From Melioribacteraceae bacterium (GTDB lineage: Bacteria; Bacteroidota; Ignavibacteria; Ignavibacteriales; Melioribacteraceae): 64,000 bases of DNA. Where the stretch lies: positions 96,640-160,639 of the forward strand of contig JAOADJ010000008.1 in assembly GCA_026417375.1 (NCBI GenBank). Direction: 5' to 3'. This document shows, in pieces, positions 2,663-30,726 of this stretch; the stretch's first letter is position 1; each line of letters opens with the position of its first letter. The notes beneath the pieces were generated by a model. The model saw only the letters and a list, made by a program, of their open reading frames with translations, was not told the origin of the DNA and ran no database searches. The translations under genes were made by a program, and so were the position numbers.

Positions 2663-3964
2663 TTATGCATCAACATGTTTTGGTGCTAAGAATTTATTAA
2701 ATATCAACAAACCAACAATAGTTAAAACTCCAATTGAAGCAAAAGTTAACCAGAGCATTGTTGGATTATGAAGTTTATCAACAAAATGAACATATAAATT
2801 TGCCCCAAGAATTCCGCCAATTCCACTTCCTAATACACCATATAAAAATGAATAACCAAGGTATACTGCTTTTTTATCTTCAGGAGCAATTAATCCCACA
2901 TACGAAATAAACTTTGGATGAGCAGTCATTTCACCAACAGAAAAAATAAAAATGCCTGCAATGAAAACGAAAGGATGAGTTGAAATTGCTAAAATAGCAA
3001 CACCCAATGTTCCTAATGCAATACCTGTTATCATAGTTGGCAAAGCTTTTTTATTTTGAACTATTTTGGAAACAAAAATTTGTAACAAAATAATTGTGCC
3101 TGCATTTATAACAGTAACATGTTCTACATCAAATTTCCAGTTTGGATTACTGATAAAAATTGAAAGGAAAGAATTAACTGCATTGTTAATAGGTGTTTTA
3201 TCAACATAATCTTTGAAATACCAAAGAACAGAATCAAATTGTTGAAAATATAAAATCCAGAAACCTGAATAAATTACAATCATTAAAATAAATCTGAAAT
3301 CTTTTAACACTAACACAGCTTCTTTCAAAACAACAGGAAGTGATTTCGTGCTTTCAGGTTTTTTAGGTTCTTTATAAGTAAAAATATTTAATAATAATAG
3401 CCAACCCGTTCCAATTGCAGCCATAATAAAAACATAAGAATAAGAATATTGTTTTAACATAGGAACAAGTATTAATGGAAATAAAAATGCACCTAAATTT
3501 ATAGTCCAATAAAAAATTCCGAATGCCAAAGTTGAATTCGATTTATCGGTTACACGAGCAATAGTACCAGAAATAATTGGTTTAAAAGTTCCTGCACCAA
3601 TTACCATTAAAATTAAACTTGCAAAAACCATTGCATATGAAGTCATAAAACTGGTAAGAAGATACCCCGCACTCATAACAGCAAAAGCAAACATTAAAGT
3701 ATATCGATAACCAAACCTATCGGCAATAGCACCAGCAACAATTGGCAATAAATAAAGCAACGGTTGAAATGTGCTTGTAATTACACCAACACTTTCTTTT
3801 GAAAAACCTAATCCACCTTCAGATACACTCAAAACCAAATAAACAGAAAGTATAGAACGTACACCATAATAAGAACCACGTTCAAAAAATTCCATTATAA
3901 TAACAGTCCAAAAATTTTTTGGATAAGAAAGAATTGTTTCCCAAGTTGATTTTTTTTGTTCCAT
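2663..3964 (-). CDS. MFS transporter, peptide (POT/PTR)-like
   Basis: About 12 TM segments; N-terminal EFFERGSYYG motif; GAIADRFGYR MFS loop motif; GAGTFKP. Confidence 0.85.
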   Translation of the reverse strand: MEQKKSTWETILSYPKNFWTVIIMEFFERGSYYGVRSILSVYLVLSVSEGGLGFSKESVGVITSTFQPLLYLLPIVAGAIADRFGYRYTLMFAFAVMSAGYLLTSFMTSYAMVFASLILMVIGAGTFKPIISGTIARVTDKSNSTLAFGIFYWTINLGAFLFPLILVPMLKQYSYSYVFIMAAIGTGWLLLLNIFTYKEPKKPESTKSLPVVLKEAVLVLKDFRFILMIVIYSGFWILYFQQFDSVLWYFKDYVDKTPINNAVNSFLSIFISNPNWKFDVEHVTVINAGTIILLQIFVSKIVQNKKALPTMITGIALGTLGVAILAISTHPFVFIAGIFIFSVGEMTAHPKFISYVGLIAPEDKKAVYLGYSFLYGVLGSGIGGILGANLYVHFVDKLHNPTMLWLTFASIGVLTIVGLLIFNKFLAPKHVDA

Positions 3965-4755: not shown

Positions 4756-5169
4756 TCAAGATGCTTCAAAATTTGGCGTCATAAAAAAAGATGAAAAAGT
4801 TGTAAACAAATAGATAATAAAAGCGAAATAAATTATCATAAATATTAAACCAATAATGATTAATATTTTTATAATTCTAAAATACTTCCCCTGAATTTCG
4901 AAACCTAATTTTAAGGAAGCCGGATTATTGGTTAATCTATACATATAAAATTGTTCTGCGGATTCTCTGATTCTCATTCCAATTATAATTGTTGGAATAC
5001 CAATTAATGCTCCTACTATTGTTAAACATGTTATAACACCATAAACAATTGTAAACATTCCAACAAATTTCATGTCGTTAGTCATTTTATCGAACATTAA
5101 TTGAAACTGCGTTGGAGGTTTATATTGATTAGGTTGCTCCTCAATTTTTATTTCATTTAATTCATCCAT
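4756..5169 (-). CDS. DUF5362-like membrane protein
   Basis: MKFVGMFTIVYGVITCLTIVGALIGIP hairpin plus C-terminal TM helix. Confidence 0.65.
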   Translation of the reverse strand: MDELNEIKIEEQPNQYKPPTQFQLMFDKMTNDMKFVGMFTIVYGVITCLTIVGALIGIPTIIIGMRIRESAEQFYMYRLTNNPASLKLGFEIQGKYFRIIKILIIIGLIFMIIYFAFIIYLFTTFSSFFMTPNFEAS

Positions 5170-5293
5170 TTTTACTCCTAATATTTAAAGAATTATTAAA
5201 AGAAAATATCTAAATTACTTTTGAATAAAAAATTTTATCCGCCAAAAAATAAATTATTTTAAACCTTATTAGAAATAAAAAATTGAGGTCAAT

Positions 5294-6274
5294 ATGGAAT
5301 ATACATTTTTAGGAAGAACCGGTTTAAAGGTAAGTAAACTATGTCTTGGAACAATGAACTTTGGTCCTTACACAACCGAAGAAGATAGTTTCAGGATTAT
5401 GAATAGAGCCATTGAACTAGGTATCAATTTTTTTGATACTGCAAATGTTTATGGCGCTATGCTCGATCCAACAAAAGTTGGAGAAACAGAAAAAATAATT
5501 GGAAGATGGTTGAGCGAAGATAAATCAAGAAGAGATAAAATTGTACTTGCTACAAAAGTTTATGGCAAAATGGGGGATGGAGTTAACGATTCAAAACTTT
5601 CTGCTTATCATATTAAAAAAGCTTGTGAAGATAGCTTAAAAAGATTACAAACAGATCATATAGATCTTTATCAAATGCATCATATTGATAGAAATACTCC
5701 CTGGGATGAAATTTTTCAGGCAATGGATCAATTAATAACAGAAGGTAAAATAATTTATGTTGGTAGTAGTAACTTTGCTGCGTGGCATTTAACCGAAGCA
5801 TTTTACAAAGCAAAGGAAAGACATTCTCTTGGAATTGTTTCTGAACAAAGTATTTATAGTTTAAGAAACCGTGCAATTGAATTAGAAGTAATTCCTGCTT
5901 GTAAATCATTAGGAATCGGTTTGATTCCATGGAGTCCACTTGGTGGAGGAATTCTATGTGGAGTTCTTGAAAATATTAATGAGGGAAGAAGAGTAAGAGA
6001 ACCGCTACGTAAATCAATCGAAAAATTAAAACCACAAATTGTTGAATATGAAAATCTTTGCAAAGAAATAAATATAAAACCAGCAGATGTTGCTTTAGCT
6101 TGGGTTCTAAATAATCCCGTTGTTACTTCACCAATTATTGGTCCCCGAACAGTTGAACAACTTGAAGAAAATGTAAAAGCTCTAGAAATAAAATTAAGCG
6201 ACGACGTTTTAAATAAACTTGATGAAATTTGGCCAGGACCTGGTGGTCAGGCACCAGAAGCTTATGCCTGGTGA
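5294..6274 (+). CDS. Aldo/keto reductase
   Basis: LGRTGLKVSKLCLGTM, FFDTANVY, LATKV, SLKRLQTDHIDLYQMH, IPWSPLGGG motifs. Confidence 0.95.
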   Translation: MEYTFLGRTGLKVSKLCLGTMNFGPYTTEEDSFRIMNRAIELGINFFDTANVYGAMLDPTKVGETEKIIGRWLSEDKSRRDKIVLATKVYGKMGDGVNDSKLSAYHIKKACEDSLKRLQTDHIDLYQMHHIDRNTPWDEIFQAMDQLITEGKIIYVGSSNFAAWHLTEAFYKAKERHSLGIVSEQSIYSLRNRAIELEVIPACKSLGIGLIPWSPLGGGILCGVLENINEGRRVREPLRKSIEKLKPQIVEYENLCKEINIKPADVALAWVLNNPVVTSPIIGPRTVEQLEENVKALEIKLSDDVLNKLDEIWPGPGGQAPEAYAW

Positions 6275-6312
6275 AACTTCCGTAACCTCGAGTTTAATGG
6301 ACAAATTAAAAA

Positions 6313-6558
6313 ATAAATTTGTTTTTTATATAGTCATGGTTCGGCATGCTCACCATGACAACAATAATTGTCATCTCGAGCCTGTCGAGAGATGACCGAA
6401 ACATTTTTTTGTAATCTTGCATTTGAAAAACTCGATATGCACGATAAGTAATTCTGAATGAAATCGAGGAATTACAAGATAAATTTGTTTTTATATCGTC
6501 ATGGTTCGGCATGCTCACCATGACAACAAATGTCATCTCGAGCTTGTCGAGAGATGAC
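6313..6558. repeat. Two tandem ~80-bp units, each a doublet of oppositely oriented 27-bp REP-like palindromes
   Basis: Units at 6313-6396 and 6479-6558. Palindrome A GTCATGGT-TCGGCATGCTC-ACCATGAC at 6333-6359 and 6498-6524; palindrome B GTCATCTC-GAGC(C/T)TGTCGA-GAGATGAC at 6370-6396 and 6532-6558. Confidence 0.9.
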
Positions 6559-6575
6559 AAAGAAAAAAATATTGT

Positions 6576-6866
6576 ATGAAAAATTATTTTTTATACATAT
6601 TAAAATGTAGTGATGAAAGTTATTATACTGGAATAACGAATAATCTTGAAAAAAGAATCGTAGAACATAATAGAGGAATCTATAAAGGATATACATCATC
6701 AAGATTACCTGTTAAACTTGTATACTCAAGAGCGTTCAACGATATCAATGAAGCAATAAGAAGTGAAAAACAAATAAAAAATTGGAGTAGAGCAAAAAAA
6801 GAAGCATTGATTAAAGGAGATTTTGAATTACTTAAAACGCTGTCTAAAAAGAAAAAGGTTGAGTAA
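6576..6866 (+). CDS. Small GIY-YIG nuclease (UPF0213/YhbQ-like)
   Basis: YFLYILKCSDESYYTGITNNLEKRIVEHN, LVYSRAF, A..SEKQIKNWSRAKKEALI. Confidence 0.92.
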   Translation: MKNYFLYILKCSDESYYTGITNNLEKRIVEHNRGIYKGYTSSRLPVKLVYSRAFNDINEAIRSEKQIKNWSRAKKEALIKGDFELLKTLSKKKKVE

Positions 6867-6888
6867 TTGAAGTTAGTTTTCTTTAATG

Positions 6889-6926
6889 TGACAACAACTG
6901 TCATCTCGAGCTTGTCGAGAGATGAC
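6889..6926. repeat. Third REP-like palindrome B copy with a remnant of palindrome A
   Basis: TGACAACAA (end of A plus linker) at 6889-6897, then GTCATCTCGAGCTTGTCGAGAGATGAC at 6900-6926, identical to the copy at 6532-6558. Confidence 0.9.
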
Positions 6927-6958
6927 CTAAAAATTTAAATTATAAATTGGAGTGTCAA

Positions 6959-9163
6959 ATGAAAAATCTAAAATTAGTTTCATTAATTATTTTATCATTT
7001 GTTTTATTGTTTGCAAATGATATTTCCGCTCAAAAGAAAAAATTAACTTATAAACAAGTATATGAAAGTGGACTTAACATGCGGGCAATGATGTCAATGT
7101 TTAATCGCTCGCAAGGTTGGTTAGATGAAAACTATTATCTCGAATCTAAAACTGATCCTTCAAGACCAAATGTTCGTGGATTAATTTATAAAACAAATGC
7201 TGAAACGGGGCAATCAGAACTTTATTTCGATCCATCTACAATTCAACTGCCTGATGGTTTTTCAGCTGATAGAGCAATTCAAAAATCTAAAGACAATAAT
7301 TATTTTTTATTCAAACAAAAAAATGATCTATTCTATTTTGATAAAAACGAAAACAAATTTTTACAATTAACTAAAGATGATGCTGAAGAAAAAGTACCGC
7401 AACTTTCTCCAGATGGTAAAAAAGTTGCCTATGTAAAAAACAACAATCTTTTTGTTTTTAATGTTGATGATGAAAAAGAAATTCAAATTACTAATGATGG
7501 AACAGATTTAATTTATAATGGCTGGGCAAGTTGGGTTTATATGGAAGAAATTCTCGGACGATCAACAGCATATTCTGCTTTTTGGTGGTCTCCCAATAGT
7601 CAAATGATTTGTTTTTTGAGATTCGATGATTCTCCCGTTCCGGATTTTCCGATTTATATTGCAGATGGTCAGCATGGAACACTTGAACATCAACGTTATC
7701 CAAAAGCTGGCGATCCAAATCCTTTCGTAAAATTTGGTATAGCTGATATTAAAACCGGAAAAATTGTCTGGGCAGATTTTGATGAAAAAGCCGATCATTA
7801 CATTGCCTGGCCTACCTGGACAAAAGATAATAAACTTACTGTTCAATGGATGAACAGAACTCAGGATAATATAATCATTTATAATATTGATTTAGTAACA
7901 GGAAAAAAATCTCAACTTTATTCTGAAACACAAAAAACATGGGTAGAGTGGTTTGAAGATTTATATTTCTTTGAAAATAAATCTGGTTTTCTTTTAAGAT
8001 CTAATGTTGATGGTTTTGCTCATCTTTATTATTATGACATGAATGGAAAACTTATTAAAAGATTAACGCAGGGAGATTGGGAAGTTACATCAATAAATTA
8101 TGTGGATGAACAAAATAAAAAAGTTTATTTCACTGCCTGGAAGGATAAAAGCACTGAAAGACATTTATTTGTTGTTGGTTTAGATGGAAAAGGTCTTAAA
8201 CAATTAACTTCTATCGAAGGAACTCATACATGTTCTGTTTCACCCAAAGGAAAATATTTTATTGATACTTACAGCAATATTACTACACCTACTAAAAGTG
8301 ATTTATATAAAACCGATGGAAAACTTTTAAGAAATATTTCTGACACAAAAATTTCTCAGTTAGATGAATATCAACTTGCTAAATATGAATTGTTTTATAT
8401 TCCAACTTCAGATGGATTAAACTTACCAGCAACATGGTATTTGCCGAGTGATTTTGATCCTAATAAAAAATATCCGGTTATAGTTTCAATTTATGGAGGA
8501 CCAAATTCCGGTACAGTTAGAAACTCTTATCCATTTGGTTTAAGTGGACATTACTTGGCACAAAATGGAATTATTACTCTTGCAGTTGATCATCGGGGTT
8601 CAGGTCATTTTGGTAAAAAAGGTGTTGACTTAATGCATCGCAATCTTGGTAAATGGGAAATGAATGATTACATAGAAGCTGTAAAATGGCTTAAGAAAAA
8701 ATCTTTTGTTGATTCAACAAAAATTGGAATTACAGGTGGAAGTTATGGTGGTTATGTAACAGCACTTGCTCTAACAAAAGGCTCAGATTATTTCACTCAC
8801 GGCATTGCAGAATTTGGTGTTATGGATTGGCATTTATATGATAATGTTTATACAGAAAGATATATGGATACACCAAAAGAAAATCCCGAAGGGTATAAAG
8901 CTGGTTCGGTTTTAACTTATGTTGATAAATACAAAGGTAAAATGTTAATTACTCATGGTACAATTGACGATAATGTTCATATGCAAAATTCAATTCAATT
9001 AATTTATGAATTACAAAAATTGAATAAAGATTTTGAAATGATGCTATATCCAAATCAACGACATGGAATAGGAATGCCGCAAGCTCAACATGCAAACCGG
9101 GAAAGAGTAAAATTCTGGTTTAAATATTTTTTAAACAAAGATTTGGACGTAAATAAAGATTAA
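6959..9163 (+). CDS. S9B family dipeptidyl peptidase IV
   Basis: Signal peptide; DPP IV beta-propeller (GWASWVYMEE, YPKAG); catalytic GGSYGG, HGTIDDNVH, HGI. ATG at 6959 after GGAG. Confidence 0.93.
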   Translation: MKNLKLVSLIILSFVLLFANDISAQKKKLTYKQVYESGLNMRAMMSMFNRSQGWLDENYYLESKTDPSRPNVRGLIYKTNAETGQSELYFDPSTIQLPDGFSADRAIQKSKDNNYFLFKQKNDLFYFDKNENKFLQLTKDDAEEKVPQLSPDGKKVAYVKNNNLFVFNVDDEKEIQITNDGTDLIYNGWASWVYMEEILGRSTAYSAFWWSPNSQMICFLRFDDSPVPDFPIYIADGQHGTLEHQRYPKAGDPNPFVKFGIADIKTGKIVWADFDEKADHYIAWPTWTKDNKLTVQWMNRTQDNIIIYNIDLVTGKKSQLYSETQKTWVEWFEDLYFFENKSGFLLRSNVDGFAHLYYYDMNGKLIKRLTQGDWEVTSINYVDEQNKKVYFTAWKDKSTERHLFVVGLDGKGLKQLTSIEGTHTCSVSPKGKYFIDTYSNITTPTKSDLYKTDGKLLRNISDTKISQLDEYQLAKYELFYIPTSDGLNLPATWYLPSDFDPNKKYPVIVSIYGGPNSGTVRNSYPFGLSGHYLAQNGIITLAVDHRGSGHFGKKGVDLMHRNLGKWEMNDYIEAVKWLKKKSFVDSTKIGITGGSYGGYVTALALTKGSDYFTHGIAEFGVMDWHLYDNVYTERYMDTPKENPEGYKAGSVLTYVDKYKGKMLITHGTIDDNVHMQNSIQLIYELQKLNKDFEMMLYPNQRHGIGMPQAQHANRERVKFWFKYFLNKDLDVNKD

Positions 9164-10140: not shown

Positions 10141-11865
10141 ATGAAATTTTTTCGTGGTGTGTTAATAATATTAACTTTAGCATTTCTGTTTTCTTGCGAT
10201 GCTCCTCATTCAAATCCTGCGGATCCACAAAATCCCAATAACAAATTTGCTCAAGTTGATGGTTATGTTTTAACTTATGAACAACCACGGGTTGCAATTT
10301 CTAATGTTAAAGTAGTTTGGAAAAATCAAAACATTTTAACTTATACAGATTCAACCGGATACTTTCGGATTCAGGATGTTCAGCGAATTGATGGTAAATT
10401 GATTTTTGAAAAAGATGGATATTCAAAAGATTCATCTGTTGTAAAATGGAATAACCAAAATACCAAAAGAATAGAAACTGTATTACTTTCTTTTACTTTT
10501 GGGGATTTAGATGGATTTGTTTTAACCAACGACCAACCACAACAACCAATTTCTAAAGTTAAAGTTTATTGGAAAAATGCGAATGTCATTGCTGAAACAA
10601 ATTCAAATGGTTATTTCAAAATTGAAAATGTTCCTATTAGAAGTGGAATGATTTATTTTGAAAAGGATGGTTTTAAATCGGATTCTCTTTTAGTTGAATG
10701 GACAACTCAAAAAACCAAGCGAATTGAAAATGTTTCATTAAAATATAATGTCGGAAGTATTGATGGTTTTGTTCAAACTTCTGATTTACCAAATCAACCA
10801 ATTAATAACGTAAAAGTTTTTTGGAAAAATCAAAATGTTTTTGCTACAACAAATTCAAACGGATATTTTAAGATTGACAACGTTCCGATAAAAAGTGGAA
10901 TGATTTATTTTGAAAAAGATGGTTTTAAGAAAGATTCTCTTTTTGTTAATTGGACTAATGAAAGAAGTAAAAGAATTTCAACTGTATTTTTAGATTACAC
11001 AATTGGCTCAATTAGTGGTTCAGTTTATACAATTGCTTTTCCACGTAAACCAATTTCAAAAACAAAAATTTATTGGAAAAACAACAACATAATAACAGAA
11101 ACAGATGCTTCGGGAAATTTTAGCATAAATAATATTCCAACTCAAAACGGTTTTATTTACTTTGATAAATCAGGTTATTCACCCGATTCTGCTTTTGTTA
11201 ATTGGGGTGGAAAAAACTCAGTTCGCGTAGAAAGTTTTTTAAACGCAAATCCACAATTGGATTCTCTTTCAATCTATACAATTGTTGAAAATCGTTATCC
11301 GGATATTCAGCGCTATCGTTTACAAATAAATGCAAAAATTTCCGATGCGGAAATAAATGATATTCAACTGGTTTATGTTAATAACAATAATTTAAAAATT
11401 AATTCTCAACTCATCTATAATAACGCAACAAGATTTTATGAGAGATTATTCGAACTATCAGATTTAAACATTGCTTCAATGGATGAAGCAATAGGTGAAA
11501 ATTTTAATATTATTGTTCGTGACCAATCATCAAAATTATTTAATGTCGGTTCTTCTACTATTAAAAGAATTATCCGTCAGGAAGTTGTAATTGAAAGTCC
11601 AATTGATAGATCAACAACAACATCAAAACCAACTTTAAAATGGAAAAGATATTTACCCGGTTTTAATTTCAAATATTTAATTCAGATCTACACAGATGAA
11701 GTTTCTCCAATATTAATTTGGCAAAAAGAAAATGTTTCTAAAGATGAAATCGAAATAACTCCAAATATAAATTTACCTATTGGAGATTACTTCTGGGTTA
11801 TTTGGGTTATAGATGATTTTGGTGATCGTTGCAGAACCAAACCAGCAACATTTACAGTGAAATAA
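10141..11865 (+). CDS. Lipoprotein with four tandem carboxypeptidase-regulatory-like (CnaB-type) beta-sandwich repeats
   Basis: Lipobox LFSC; four 84-aa repeats at an exact 252-nt period (10258, 10510, 10762, 11014), each DG.V...PI..VKV.WKN....T.S.GYF.I..V......FEK.G...DS. Confidence 0.8.
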   Translation: MKFFRGVLIILTLAFLFSCDAPHSNPADPQNPNNKFAQVDGYVLTYEQPRVAISNVKVVWKNQNILTYTDSTGYFRIQDVQRIDGKLIFEKDGYSKDSSVVKWNNQNTKRIETVLLSFTFGDLDGFVLTNDQPQQPISKVKVYWKNANVIAETNSNGYFKIENVPIRSGMIYFEKDGFKSDSLLVEWTTQKTKRIENVSLKYNVGSIDGFVQTSDLPNQPINNVKVFWKNQNVFATTNSNGYFKIDNVPIKSGMIYFEKDGFKKDSLFVNWTNERSKRISTVFLDYTIGSISGSVYTIAFPRKPISKTKIYWKNNNIITETDASGNFSINNIPTQNGFIYFDKSGYSPDSAFVNWGGKNSVRVESFLNANPQLDSLSIYTIVENRYPDIQRYRLQINAKISDAEINDIQLVYVNNNNLKINSQLIYNNATRFYERLFELSDLNIASMDEAIGENFNIIVRDQSSKLFNVGSSTIKRIIRQEVVIESPIDRSTTTSKPTLKWKRYLPGFNFKYLIQIYTDEVSPILIWQKENVSKDEIEITPNINLPIGDYFWVIWVIDDFGDRCRTKPATFTVK

Positions 11866-29871: not shown

Positions 29872-30726
29872 ATGAGTCTCCCAAAAATAAATGAAATTTT
29901 TTTCCCAGATGAAAGTTGTGCTTATTACAATAATGACTTGGGGGTTATTTTATATAATAACGATAGCCTTAAACTAATGGATTTGTTAATAGAGCTTTTT
30001 CCTGAGGGAATATTTGATATGATATTTGCTGATCCACCATATTTTTTATCAAATGGTGGTATTACATGTCATGCTGGAAAAATGACAAAAGTAAATAAAG
30101 GAGAGTGGGATAAATCTAAAGGTGTTAATGAAAACCATGAATTTAATTTAGCTTGGTTGTCAAAGTGCCAAAAATTATTAAAAAAAGATGGAACTCTTTG
30201 GGTAACCGGAACTAATCATGTTATTTATTCAGTAGGATTTGCAATTCAACAATTAGAAATGAAAATTCTCAATGATATATCTTGGGAAAAACCTAACCCT
30301 CCACCCAATTTATCTTGTAGATATTTTACTCATTCAACCGAAACAATAATTTGGGCAGCTAAAACTAAAAACTCAAAACACAAATTTAATTATGAGTTAA
30401 TGCGTAATTTAAATCGTGGCAAACAAATGAAAACTGTATGGACTATTTCTGCTCCTAATAATGAAGAAAAAAAGTATGGTAAACATCCTACACAAAAACC
30501 TTATCAACTTCTGGAAAGAATTATTTTAGCATGTACAGATGAAAAAGATATTATTTTTGATCCATTTTCCGGAAGCTCTACAACTGCAATAGCTGCAATT
30601 AAAAATAACAGATTTTTTGTTGGCTCTGAATTAGATAAAGAATATATTAATCTTTCTATAAAAAGAATTGAAGATGCAATAGAAAGCAAAAAAAATCATA
30701 TAAATTTATTCGAGGTAAATTTATGA
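29872..30726 (+). CDS. Beta-class N6-adenine/N4-cytosine DNA methyltransferase (DpnA-like)
   Basis: FADPPY before DPFSGSSTT; LSNGGITCHAG, CRYFTHSTE, HPTQKP. ATG at 29872 or TTG at 29845. Confidence 0.92.
   Translation: MSLPKINEIFFPDESCAYYNNDLGVILYNNDSLKLMDLLIELFPEGIFDMIFADPPYFLSNGGITCHAGKMTKVNKGEWDKSKGVNENHEFNLAWLSKCQKLLKKDGTLWVTGTNHVIYSVGFAIQQLEMKILNDISWEKPNPPPNLSCRYFTHSTETIIWAAKTKNSKHKFNYELMRNLNRGKQMKTVWTISAPNNEEKKYGKHPTQKPYQLLERIILACTDEKDIIFDPFSGSSTTAIAAIKNNRFFVGSELDKEYINLSIKRIEDAIESKKNHINLFEVNL

Follow-up and report, generated by a model that had tools for sequence, protein, structure and literature searches.

What is a small, stand-alone GIY-YIG nuclease gene doing between clusters of palindromes, and do the gene and the palindromes belong together? 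The question is raised by positions 6313–6926 of a 64,000-nucleotide (nt) stretch of Melioribacteraceae bacterium DNA (contig JAOADJ010000008.1, positions 96,640–160,639, from a hot-spring metagenome), which is referred to in its full length as the window. An original prediction, made from the sequence letters, had described a GIY-YIG open reading frame (ORF) between doublets of the repetitive extragenic palindrome (REP) type and proposed that its product is the dedicated nuclease of these palindromes, forming a REPtron-like unit with them. Our analysis indicates, with a probability of about 0.72, that the locus is an Ssn-type pair, i.e. a small GIY-YIG endonuclease gene within a cluster of hairpins that are recognized by its product.

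The ORF (6576–6866, plus strand) encodes 96 amino acids, residues 4–75 of which form a GIY-YIG domain (Pfam PF01541, E=2.2e-18). Its catalytic residues Y7, Y17, R27, H31 and E64 are invariant in an alignment of homologues; the group to which the protein belongs is referred to here as the window clade (clade W). The protein is a single domain of 96 residues with no extra DNA-binding domain, and the one match beyond Pfam was a weak one in NCBIfam, far under the cut-off. PADLOC gave zero matches to the protein, an exact look-up of its sequence returned no record, and none of NCBIfam, PADLOC and Rfam holds a model for either the protein or the hairpin.

Five palindromes of 27–28 nt, all of a single family, lie on both sides of this ORF, four upstream and one downstream. 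Palindrome A (GTCATGGTTCGGCATGCTCACCATGAC) is found at 6333–6359 and 6498–6524, and palindrome B (GTCATCTCGAGC[C/T]TGTCGAGAGATGAC) at 6370–6396, 6532–6558 and 6900–6926; neither had any match in dinucleotide-preserving shuffles. When read on the minus strand, A shares the plan of B, TGTCAT-N3-GAGC-N-TG-Y-CGA-N3-ATGAC, and the pattern given with the original prediction returns five matches in the window. All five copies have TGTC at the true head, followed by AT on the oriented strand; the CGTC with which copy A2 had been said to begin is the tail of this minus-strand copy, so that this detail was misread. As single-stranded DNA (ssDNA), each palindrome folds better than its shuffles, with z values of −3.4 to −4.0. 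The upstream copies form two doublets, A on the minus strand followed by B on the plus strand, whose heads face each other across 8 nt in the first and 5 nt in the second, with stems GGT/ACC versus CTC/GAG. The last upstream hairpin ends 17 nt before the ATG; downstream, the TGTC head starts 32 nt and the GTCAT palindrome 33 nt after the stop codon, directly preceded by the remnant of an A head at 6889–6898. The predicted layout, [A<,B>][A<,B>]–nuclease–[partial A,B>] with gaps of 17 and 33 bp, is therefore exact. In addition, a covariance model (R1), built from 68 copies of other genomes with the window copies excluded, found only these five copies in the 64 kb, with E values of 3e-10 to 5e-8 and a next best of 0.17, which bears out the statement that the palindromes occur nowhere else in the window. 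That weak match, at 30065–30089, was rejected as a chance palindrome. The gene and its hairpins are as follows.

6333–6360, minus strand: hairpin A1, in a head-to-head heterodimer with B1 (R1 E=4e-8)
6369–6396, plus strand: hairpin B1, one mismatch from B2 (R1 E=8e-10)
6498–6525, minus strand: hairpin A2, minus-strand reading TGTCATGGTGAGCATGCCGAACCATGAC, in a head-to-head heterodimer with B2 (R1 E=5e-8 on the minus strand)
6531–6558, plus strand: hairpin B2, TGTCATCTCGAGCTTGTCGAGAGATGAC, the copy closest to the gene (R1 44.7 bits, E=3e-10; ssDNA fold −8.4 kcal/mol, z=−3.7)
6576–6866, plus strand: GIY-YIG nuclease gene, Ssn-like, clade W (Pfam; hhalign against canonical Ssn-like proteins, E=7e-25)
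6899–6926, plus strand: hairpin B3, a member of a 56-nt direct repeat (R1 E=2e-9)

Such an arrangement has been published. Chenal et al. 2025 (Nat Commun 16:2388, PMC11893778) described the Neisseria dRS3/NTS repeat CGTCATTCCCGCGMAVGCGGGAATCYRG and related ‘SRM’ hairpins, CGTC-tagged repeats which flank small single-domain GIY-YIG genes in many bacteria. Their enzyme SsnA (94 amino acids, CDD family cd10448) binds the hairpin in single-stranded form only and makes its cut a few nt upstream, ignoring duplex DNA, RNA and the reverse strand, and its activity is lost in the mutants Y6A, Y17A and E64A; SsnA and three homologues were assayed, which is the basis for the analogy drawn here, and in Neisseria meningitidis SsnA lowers transformation by NTS-bearing DNA (PMC11893778). 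By a degenerate motif, a repeat is located close to 71% of Ssn homologues and on either side of 42%, and the NTS–ssnA–NTS layout was likened by the authors to IS200/IS605 and RAYT/REP (PMC11893778). For SRM and Ssn a correlation of 81% has been reported. The concept of a GIY-YIG enzyme paired with REPs, REPtron analogy included, was thus already in print, and the original prediction is essentially an independent rediscovery of it. Its premise, which is that of Di Nocera et al. (BMC Genomics 2013, PMC3733652), that REPs of the CGTC class lack a dedicated enzyme, is out of date after the Ssn work.

The window locus shares with the Ssn/SRM systems a single-domain GIY-YIG protein of approximately 95 amino acids with the same catalytic residues, a gene bracketed by short oriented hairpins with a 5′ YGTC head followed by AT, and a repeat family that is clustered and, in some other genomes, also found as solo copies. 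Another shared trait is the insertion of the gene between unrelated housekeeping genes, as seen on plasmid AZO_p3 of Azospirillum lipoferum 4B, where a 97-amino-acid GIY-YIG gene lies between sufB and sufC (locus L220, 1079–1587) with pairs of CGTCATCCCCGCGAAGGCGGGGATCCAG on both sides and four SRM-motif matches. CGTCATCCCCGCGAAGGCGGGGATCCAG differs from the NTS consensus only in one compensatory pair. This protein with NTS-type repeats, together with its relatives, served as our proxy for N. meningitidis SsnA (NMB0047) and is termed canonical Ssn. Its doublets, which place four NTS-like repeats inside the suf operon, are arranged tail-to-tail, whereas those of the window are head-to-head. Another small GIY-YIG gene of the canonical type, on plasmid p1 of Planktothrix agardhii (L227, 601–885), lies between an MmeI-type restriction–modification gene and the DISARM gene drmA, i.e. 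in a defence-island context.

The pairing of gene and hairpin was assessed across nine independent loci that hold 11 window-clade genes. At E≤1e-4, R1 gave 58 matches, of which 46 lay within 400 nt of the gene as against 4.4 expected (P=1e-40). Hairpins stand beside the gene at all nine loci, and nine of the 11 genes have them on both sides within 400 nt; the closest upstream hairpin usually ends 12–25 nt ahead of the start codon, and on the other side of the gene the hairpin frequently overlaps the stop codon. By comparison, the yhbQ locus of Escherichia coli gave no R1 match, nor did Bacillus subtilis yazA and its Listeria and Legionella relatives, and no match at E<0.1 was found at the canonical Ssn and YhbQ/YazA loci. 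A Sphingomonas protein that groups with the window clade has, on the flanks of its gene, hairpins that share the GAGCGAAGTCGAAG core. Canonical Ssn loci carry NTS-type repeats only, and the kind of hairpin at a locus thus goes with the clade of its protein.

The overlap with the stop codon also has a trace in the proteins. In some of the homologous genes the stop codon is located inside the hairpin, and in P0010, P0031, P0040, P0067 and the gene of locus L008 the C-terminal tails, e.g. GHGSTGRHV, RHSSTGSE and RALRLRSGRTRE, are the translated downstream hairpin.

The same loci bear on a second reading, in which the gene is a housekeeping DNA-damage exonuclease of the YhbQ/UPF0213 type located in a spacer that collects generic REPs, and protein and hairpins are functionally unrelated. 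UPF0213 proteins (YhbQ, YazA; PDB 1zg2 and 1ywl) indeed have the size and fold of the window protein and the strongest profile similarity to it: hhalign of the window clade against UPF0213 (YhbQ, YazA, BH0048 and EF2693) gave E=2.7e-31, a very strong match, and the best matches among solved structures are UPF0213 proteins (1zg2, E=2e-15). Hairpins elsewhere are, moreover, mostly solo. We nevertheless regard this reading as very improbable, as hairpins accompany the gene at all nine independent loci in different contexts, and across the 64 kb they are confined to the GIY-YIG gene. The UPF0213 genes, in contrast, are found in conserved operons (trmNF–yazA–rsmI in Bacillus and Listeria, yhbP–yhbQ–yhbS in E. 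coli) and have no flanking hairpins. It also fits poorly with a gene that is missing from the orthologous site of a relative (L140, described below), and with the phylogeny. A neighbour-joining tree with 200 bootstraps separated three groups, UPF0213 (90%), canonical Ssn (100%) and the window clade (100%, or 83% with two alphaproteobacterial proteins included), and the UPF0213 group excludes the window clade.

Other comparisons concern the relation to Ssn. The window-clade profile aligned with canonical Ssn over the whole domain (E=7e-25, probability 99.6%), whereas canonical Ssn against UPF0213 gave E=2.8e-14. The motif EKxxKxWxRxxKxxLI is common to the window clade and canonical Ssn, and the C-terminal motif of UPF0213, E..VK.L(S/T)(R/K)..K, differs from that of the window clade, EKQIKGWSRAKKEALI. 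Pairwise identities of the window protein are 31% to YhbQ, 43% to YazA and 38% to the A. lipoferum protein. A search of 1.84 billion representative proteins with the clade profile (hmmsearch) returned 24,914 proteins at E≤1e-3, 8,155 at E≤1e-10 and 120 at E≤1e-30. Judged by these sequence comparisons, the window clade is a clade of its own, apart from both canonical Ssn and UPF0213/YhbQ; on this sampling it appears to be a sister lineage of Ssn with its own hairpin, and its membership of cd10448 is putative.

Several observations weigh against assigning the window locus to the Ssn type. The window-clade profile is somewhat nearer to UPF0213/YhbQ than to canonical Ssn, and the clade is separate from canonical Ssn in the tree on this sampling. 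The orientation of the hairpin closest to the gene is variable, being on the minus strand in L131 and L132. The GTC of the window tag can pair with the 3′ GAC, unlike that of NTS, and the window hairpins fail the published SRM motif, HGTCWYN(0-2)YYVSBRHN(0-5)WNVSBRGN(0-2)RNCYNB, which matched nowhere in the window or in 87.6 kb of window-clade loci. This motif was a search heuristic derived from 29 genomes (PMC11893778); we regard it as too narrow and do not count its failure as evidence against kinship. Further differences are the invariant GAGC...TCGA core and the self-complementary GTCAY/RTGAC outer end of the window hairpin, which Ssn hairpins do not have, and the hosts, which are Ignavibacteriota and other phyla outside the Proteobacteria.

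How far the hairpin itself extends was examined by a scan with the pattern TGTCAYNNNGAGCN{3,4}TCGANNNRTGAC, one genome per species, which returned at least 120 stretches. Among the matches listed there are more than ten phyla, including Ignavibacteriota, Bacteroidota, Calditrichota, Eremiobacterota/Vulcanimicrobiota, Peregrinibacteria, Nitrospinota, Spirochaetota, Acidobacteriota, Zixibacteria, Dependentiae and a few Proteobacteria; 12 stretches matched among 2.9 million viral contigs scanned. The consensus of the window-clade hairpins is TGTCAY-N3-GAGC-N3-4-TCGA-N3-RTGAC. In the copies from the scan, the three variable stem positions of each hairpin form Watson–Crick pairs in 406 of 420 cases, with more than 15 stem types, and the inner core GAGC...TCGA is invariant across phyla while the stems vary. 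The sequence flanking the hairpins is unconserved, as are the positions downstream, where there is no conserved CCA tail. As the stems covary and the flanks are unconserved, this is a dispersed REP-like element under structural constraint with an invariant inner core. Across the 68 copies taken from other genomes, the TGTC and the A after it never vary, a constancy that the search pattern imposed, and the base that comes next is T or C; in predicted folds the GTC of the head is base-paired to the 3′ GAC. A full-text literature search for the hairpin core strings gave chance primer matches only and no description of the core, and Bacteroidota are not mentioned in the main text of PMC11893778.

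Among known repeats, a close likeness is with the CGTC REPs, a class to which dRS3 itself was assigned, as CGTC-1, by Di Nocera et al. (PMC3733652). In this class the head is often TGTC, stems start with AT, head-to-head heterodimers are common and there is no transposase (PMC3733652). The window hairpins share the TGTC head, which is a stated variant of CGTC, the AT stem start, a total length of approximately 28 nt, the predominance of head-to-head dimers that are often heterodimers and the lack of a transposase. They differ in that CGTC REPs have an unpaired head, a short CCA-type tail and a 4–5-nt loop, whereas the window hairpins have a paired GTC head, no conserved CCA tail and a conserved centre core of 11–12 nt, and in their association with a GIY-YIG gene, unlike CGTC REPs as described in 2013. 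We therefore view the window repeats as a TGTC-tagged variant of the CGTC-class REP/SRM type, with a covarying outer stem and an invariant core, GAGC-loop-TCGA.

These features also speak to whether the palindromes act as RNA, i.e. as terminators, attenuators or mRNA stabilizers for the gene and its neighbours, rather than as nuclease substrates. At most loci the gene is co-directional with the upstream gene. With only 17 nt between hairpin and ATG there is no space for a promoter, so that the hairpins are probably transcribed, and Di Nocera et al. argued that many REPs act as RNA elements (PMC3733652). Intrinsic terminators were, however, ruled out, since there is no T-run after any hairpin and a terminator scan gave 0 terminator-like sites. 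No Rfam family matches the hairpins, and the hairpin near the ATG occurs in either orientation, depending on the locus. An unpaired GAGC...TCGA core that is invariant while the stems vary is more in keeping with protein recognition than with the function of a simple stem–loop, and SsnA is inactive on RNA (PMC11893778). On this balance an RNA role seems improbable. An integron attC cassette, in which a small promoterless ORF stands beside an ssDNA-folding site, was also set aside, as the hairpins, at 28 nt, follow another consensus and the called neighbours of the related loci covered include no integrase-family domain, the window's own genes not having been scanned for integrase.

The question then is whether gene and hairpins move together, and for this the surroundings of the pair are needed. 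The remaining features of the locus are listed here.

5294–6274, plus strand: aldo/keto reductase gene (akr), left neighbour, outside the element (Pfam PF00248; synteny with L001, L002 and L140, the contig with the empty site)
6281–6302, plus strand: decayed hairpin remnant CGTAACCTCGAGTTTAATGGAC, directly after the akr stop codon (aligns to an intact Stygiobacter electus hairpin)
6316–6529 (6316–6364 and 6481–6529), plus strand: 165-bp tandem duplication that gave the two A<B> doublets (92% identical, repeat search)
6448–6475, plus strand: decayed hairpin GTAATTCTGAATGAAATCGAGGAATTAC, the positional homologue of S. electus hairpin TGTCATCCCGAGTTTAATCGAGGAATGAC
6521–6576, plus strand: 56-nt direct repeat, left copy (repeat search; 84% identity with its partner)
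6889–6944, plus strand: 56-nt direct repeat, right copy (repeat search)
6947–9163, plus strand: dipeptidyl peptidase IV gene (dpp), right neighbour, outside the element (Pfam PF00930 and PF00326; syntenic in L001, L002 and L140)

The 56-nt direct repeats flank the gene, and their start-to-start distance of 368 bp corresponds to the gene plus one repeat. At the positions of the two decayed copies (6281–6302 and 6448–6475), S. electus has intact ‘TTAA-loop’ hairpins to which they align, so the array is older than its intact copies suggest. Further along the window, positions 10141–11865 encode a predicted protein of 574 amino acids with four internal repeats of approximately 95 residues (...KVxWKNxN...GYFxIxNVP...IYFEKDGF...), which is unrelated to the GIY-YIG cassette.

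The closest named organism is S. electus (Ignavibacteriota; GCA_029210465.1), whose protein has 90% identity with that of the window over the aligned part. There and in one other assembly the gene is held at the same akr–dpp site, which makes three genomes including the window, and identities to the window at this site are 94% for AKR, 90% for the GIY-YIG protein and 91–92% for DPP. The nuclease thus diverges like its neighbours at the shared locus, indicating vertical inheritance on that time scale. The number of hairpin units per side differs between these genomes, and in S. electus the entire upstream array recurs on the downstream side, so that the gene stands in an array–gene–array layout. 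S. electus has at least three hairpin-flanked GIY-YIG copies; the second intact copy lies between rrf2 and cydA, and the third (L003, 7043–7355; JARGDL010000010.1), which follows cydB, is broken by an in-frame stop and then a frameshift; this pseudogene has kept its flanking hairpins, at 6998–7030 and 7327–7359. Close by, at L003 7365–7409, there is a hairpin with a loop insertion of approximately 17 nt (GAGCCTGTC-TGCCGACAGGCAGGCTTG-TCGAAGG), possibly an insertion into the hairpin centre.

Elsewhere the clade occupies sites at type II secretion ATPase genes, between peptidase M13 and glycosidase genes, between GH16 and cellulase genes, a locus that is conserved across species, and between polA and EamA in a Patescibacteria genome. 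In L132/L133 two paralogous genes of 104 amino acids (3001–3315 and 4935–5249; 88% amino acid identity), each hairpin-flanked, bracket a Glyco_hydro_cc gene in a layout that resembles a composite element. Immediately before the cassette lies an esterase gene that is intact in L004 (3062–3742; 226–238 amino acids) and fragmented at approximately 2290–2990 of the orthologous L134–L136 of related genomes. The AKR gene upstream of the L137 homologue encodes a protein only 29% identical with the window AKR, and this was dismissed as a coincidence rather than a shared locus.

With the AKR protein as query, a metagenome scan yielded a single syntenic relative, Ga0172370_10000179 (L140), with the order cation-efflux gene, DUF5362, akr (81% identical) and dpp (74% identical). 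Its akr–dpp spacer is 154 nt long and contains no GIY-YIG gene and no hairpin, the best R1 match (E=0.44) being elsewhere. This contig therefore shows an empty site of the kind that the original prediction had suggested looking for, with akr joined directly to dpp, and the block is an insertion or a deletion: either the Stygiobacter lineage acquired it or the other lineage lost it. The copies at unrelated sites and the pseudogene favour gain.

Given these copies, the cassette might be more than a pair, namely an autonomous selfish element and REPtron analogue with a GIY-YIG enzyme that nicks the hairpins, drives copying of the gene and of solo hairpins in a homing-like or peel-and-paste-like manner and so generates the dispersed TGTC-REP family. 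This overlaps with the Ssn-type reading and adds an active role in propagation. The Ssn authors themselves raised the analogy with IS200/RAYT (PMC11893778). In favour are also the several copies at unrelated intergenic sites of S. electus, one of them a pseudogene, the empty site of the close relative L140, the direct repeats or whole arrays on both sides of the gene and the presence of the hairpin family in the more than ten phyla among the matches listed. The window gene and its homologues at the same akr–dpp locus are, however, inherited vertically in three genomes, the conservation of the GH16–cellulase locus across species points the same way, and no target-site duplication was seen. Metagenome contigs on the locus break at the repeats and offer no clean excision joint. 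GIY-YIG enzymes act by hydrolysis of DNA and are not known to pass through a covalent intermediate that would allow strand transfer. We therefore consider autonomous propagation a possibility on the unlikely side.

One contig of run X1 does join 6317 to 7015, skipping 697 nt, at a depth of 6.8 versus 41 and with a short side of 22 nt. This joint is off the hairpin borders and may stem from another locus or strain; being weak as well, it is no evidence of excision. In the same run, contig depth at hairpin A (6323–6369) is 337–473 versus approximately 41 for the flanks, the abundant form being the canonical variant GGTGAGCCTGTCGAACC, and this high depth implies more copies in the community or genome than the window shows.

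The distribution of hairpins without the gene also counts against an autonomous element. Among the matches listed, 117 of the 120 loci selected by their hairpins have no GIY-YIG homologue within 8 kb, and in the remaining three a homologue is present but never adjacent. Since solo repeats far outnumber genes, as with NTS, this reverse test is uninformative about the association itself. Solo hairpins are absent from the 64-kb window and from 16.6 kb of S. electus, and solo clusters are present in other genomes of the clade (L004 and L131). The proposal of a dedicated, REPtron-like nuclease hence divides in two: the gene–hairpin pairing stands and is clade-specific, whereas the propagation of palindromes by the nuclease goes beyond the pairing and is unproven, with a vertically inherited gene at the three-genome locus and most of the listed hairpin loci lacking it.

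Two further comparisons define what kind of element this is. REPtrons (RAYT/TnpA-REP) resemble the window in having a small nuclease gene between palindromes that are also dispersed in the genome, with an ssDNA hairpin as the expected substrate. They use an HUH/Y1 covalent intermediate in place of GIY-YIG hydrolysis, and their heads are GTAG where those of the window are TGTC; no Y1 transposase family was found among the called genes of 13 related loci, and no HUH transposase is involved. GIY-YIG homing endonucleases of the I-TevI type share the catalytic domain and the habit of residing as selfish insertions. They carry a separate DNA-binding domain, cut duplex DNA and are found in introns or as free-standing phage genes, unlike the window protein, which is a bare domain of 96 amino acids.

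On the Ssn-type reading, and by analogy with the assayed SsnA enzymes, the window protein would bind and cleave ssDNA, and the inner core may be its recognition determinant. It would bind the hairpin when that strand is single-stranded, i.e. during replication, repair or uptake of transforming or conjugating DNA, and then cut a few nt 5′ of the TGTC head, leaving duplex DNA, RNA and the opposite strand intact. A head-to-head doublet would present two cut sites, one per strand, in or around the 5–8-nt spacer between the heads. The cassette of array and gene has undergone gain or loss in the akr–dpp spacer of the Stygiobacter lineage, where its inheritance is now vertical while the arrays expand and contract. 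Its spread may proceed by recombination between hairpin arrays: the array–gene–array layout could be the product of a Campbell-type integration of a circle of gene plus array into a resident array, and the gene would be removed once more if the two arrays recombined. Such recombination would provide a route for rare movement without a transposase.

The principle of a tiny GIY-YIG enzyme with hairpins that are cut in ssDNA has already been published, and this locus opens no new field. What is new here is a distinct protein clade, a distinct and widespread hairpin type and evidence for gain and loss. The pairing is extended to phyla outside the discussion in the main text of PMC11893778, and as the published motif misses the window-clade hairpins, surveys based on it undercount such systems. 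Each pair of nuclease and hairpin may offer a new specificity for cutting ssDNA in a site-specific or DNA-guided manner, a use proposed by the Ssn authors (PMC11893778). A bolder proposal, which we offer tentatively and think doubtful, is that the window clade is a second, uncharacterized lineage of hairpin-guided GIY-YIG enzymes between UPF0213/YhbQ and canonical Ssn, and its cassette an active selfish element that seeds TGTCAY-N3-GAGC...TCGA-N3-RTGAC repeats in more than ten phyla. If this were true, GIY-YIG proteins would be the long-missing dedicated enzymes of the transposase-less CGTC-class REPs, and the invariant GAGC/TCGA core, possibly with tandem G.A pairs, would be a new ssDNA recognition code. 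With its empty site, multiple copies, pseudogene and array–gene–array layout, the Stygiobacter lineage offers a workable case for studying cassette movement and the origin of CGTC-class REPs, a question since 2013.

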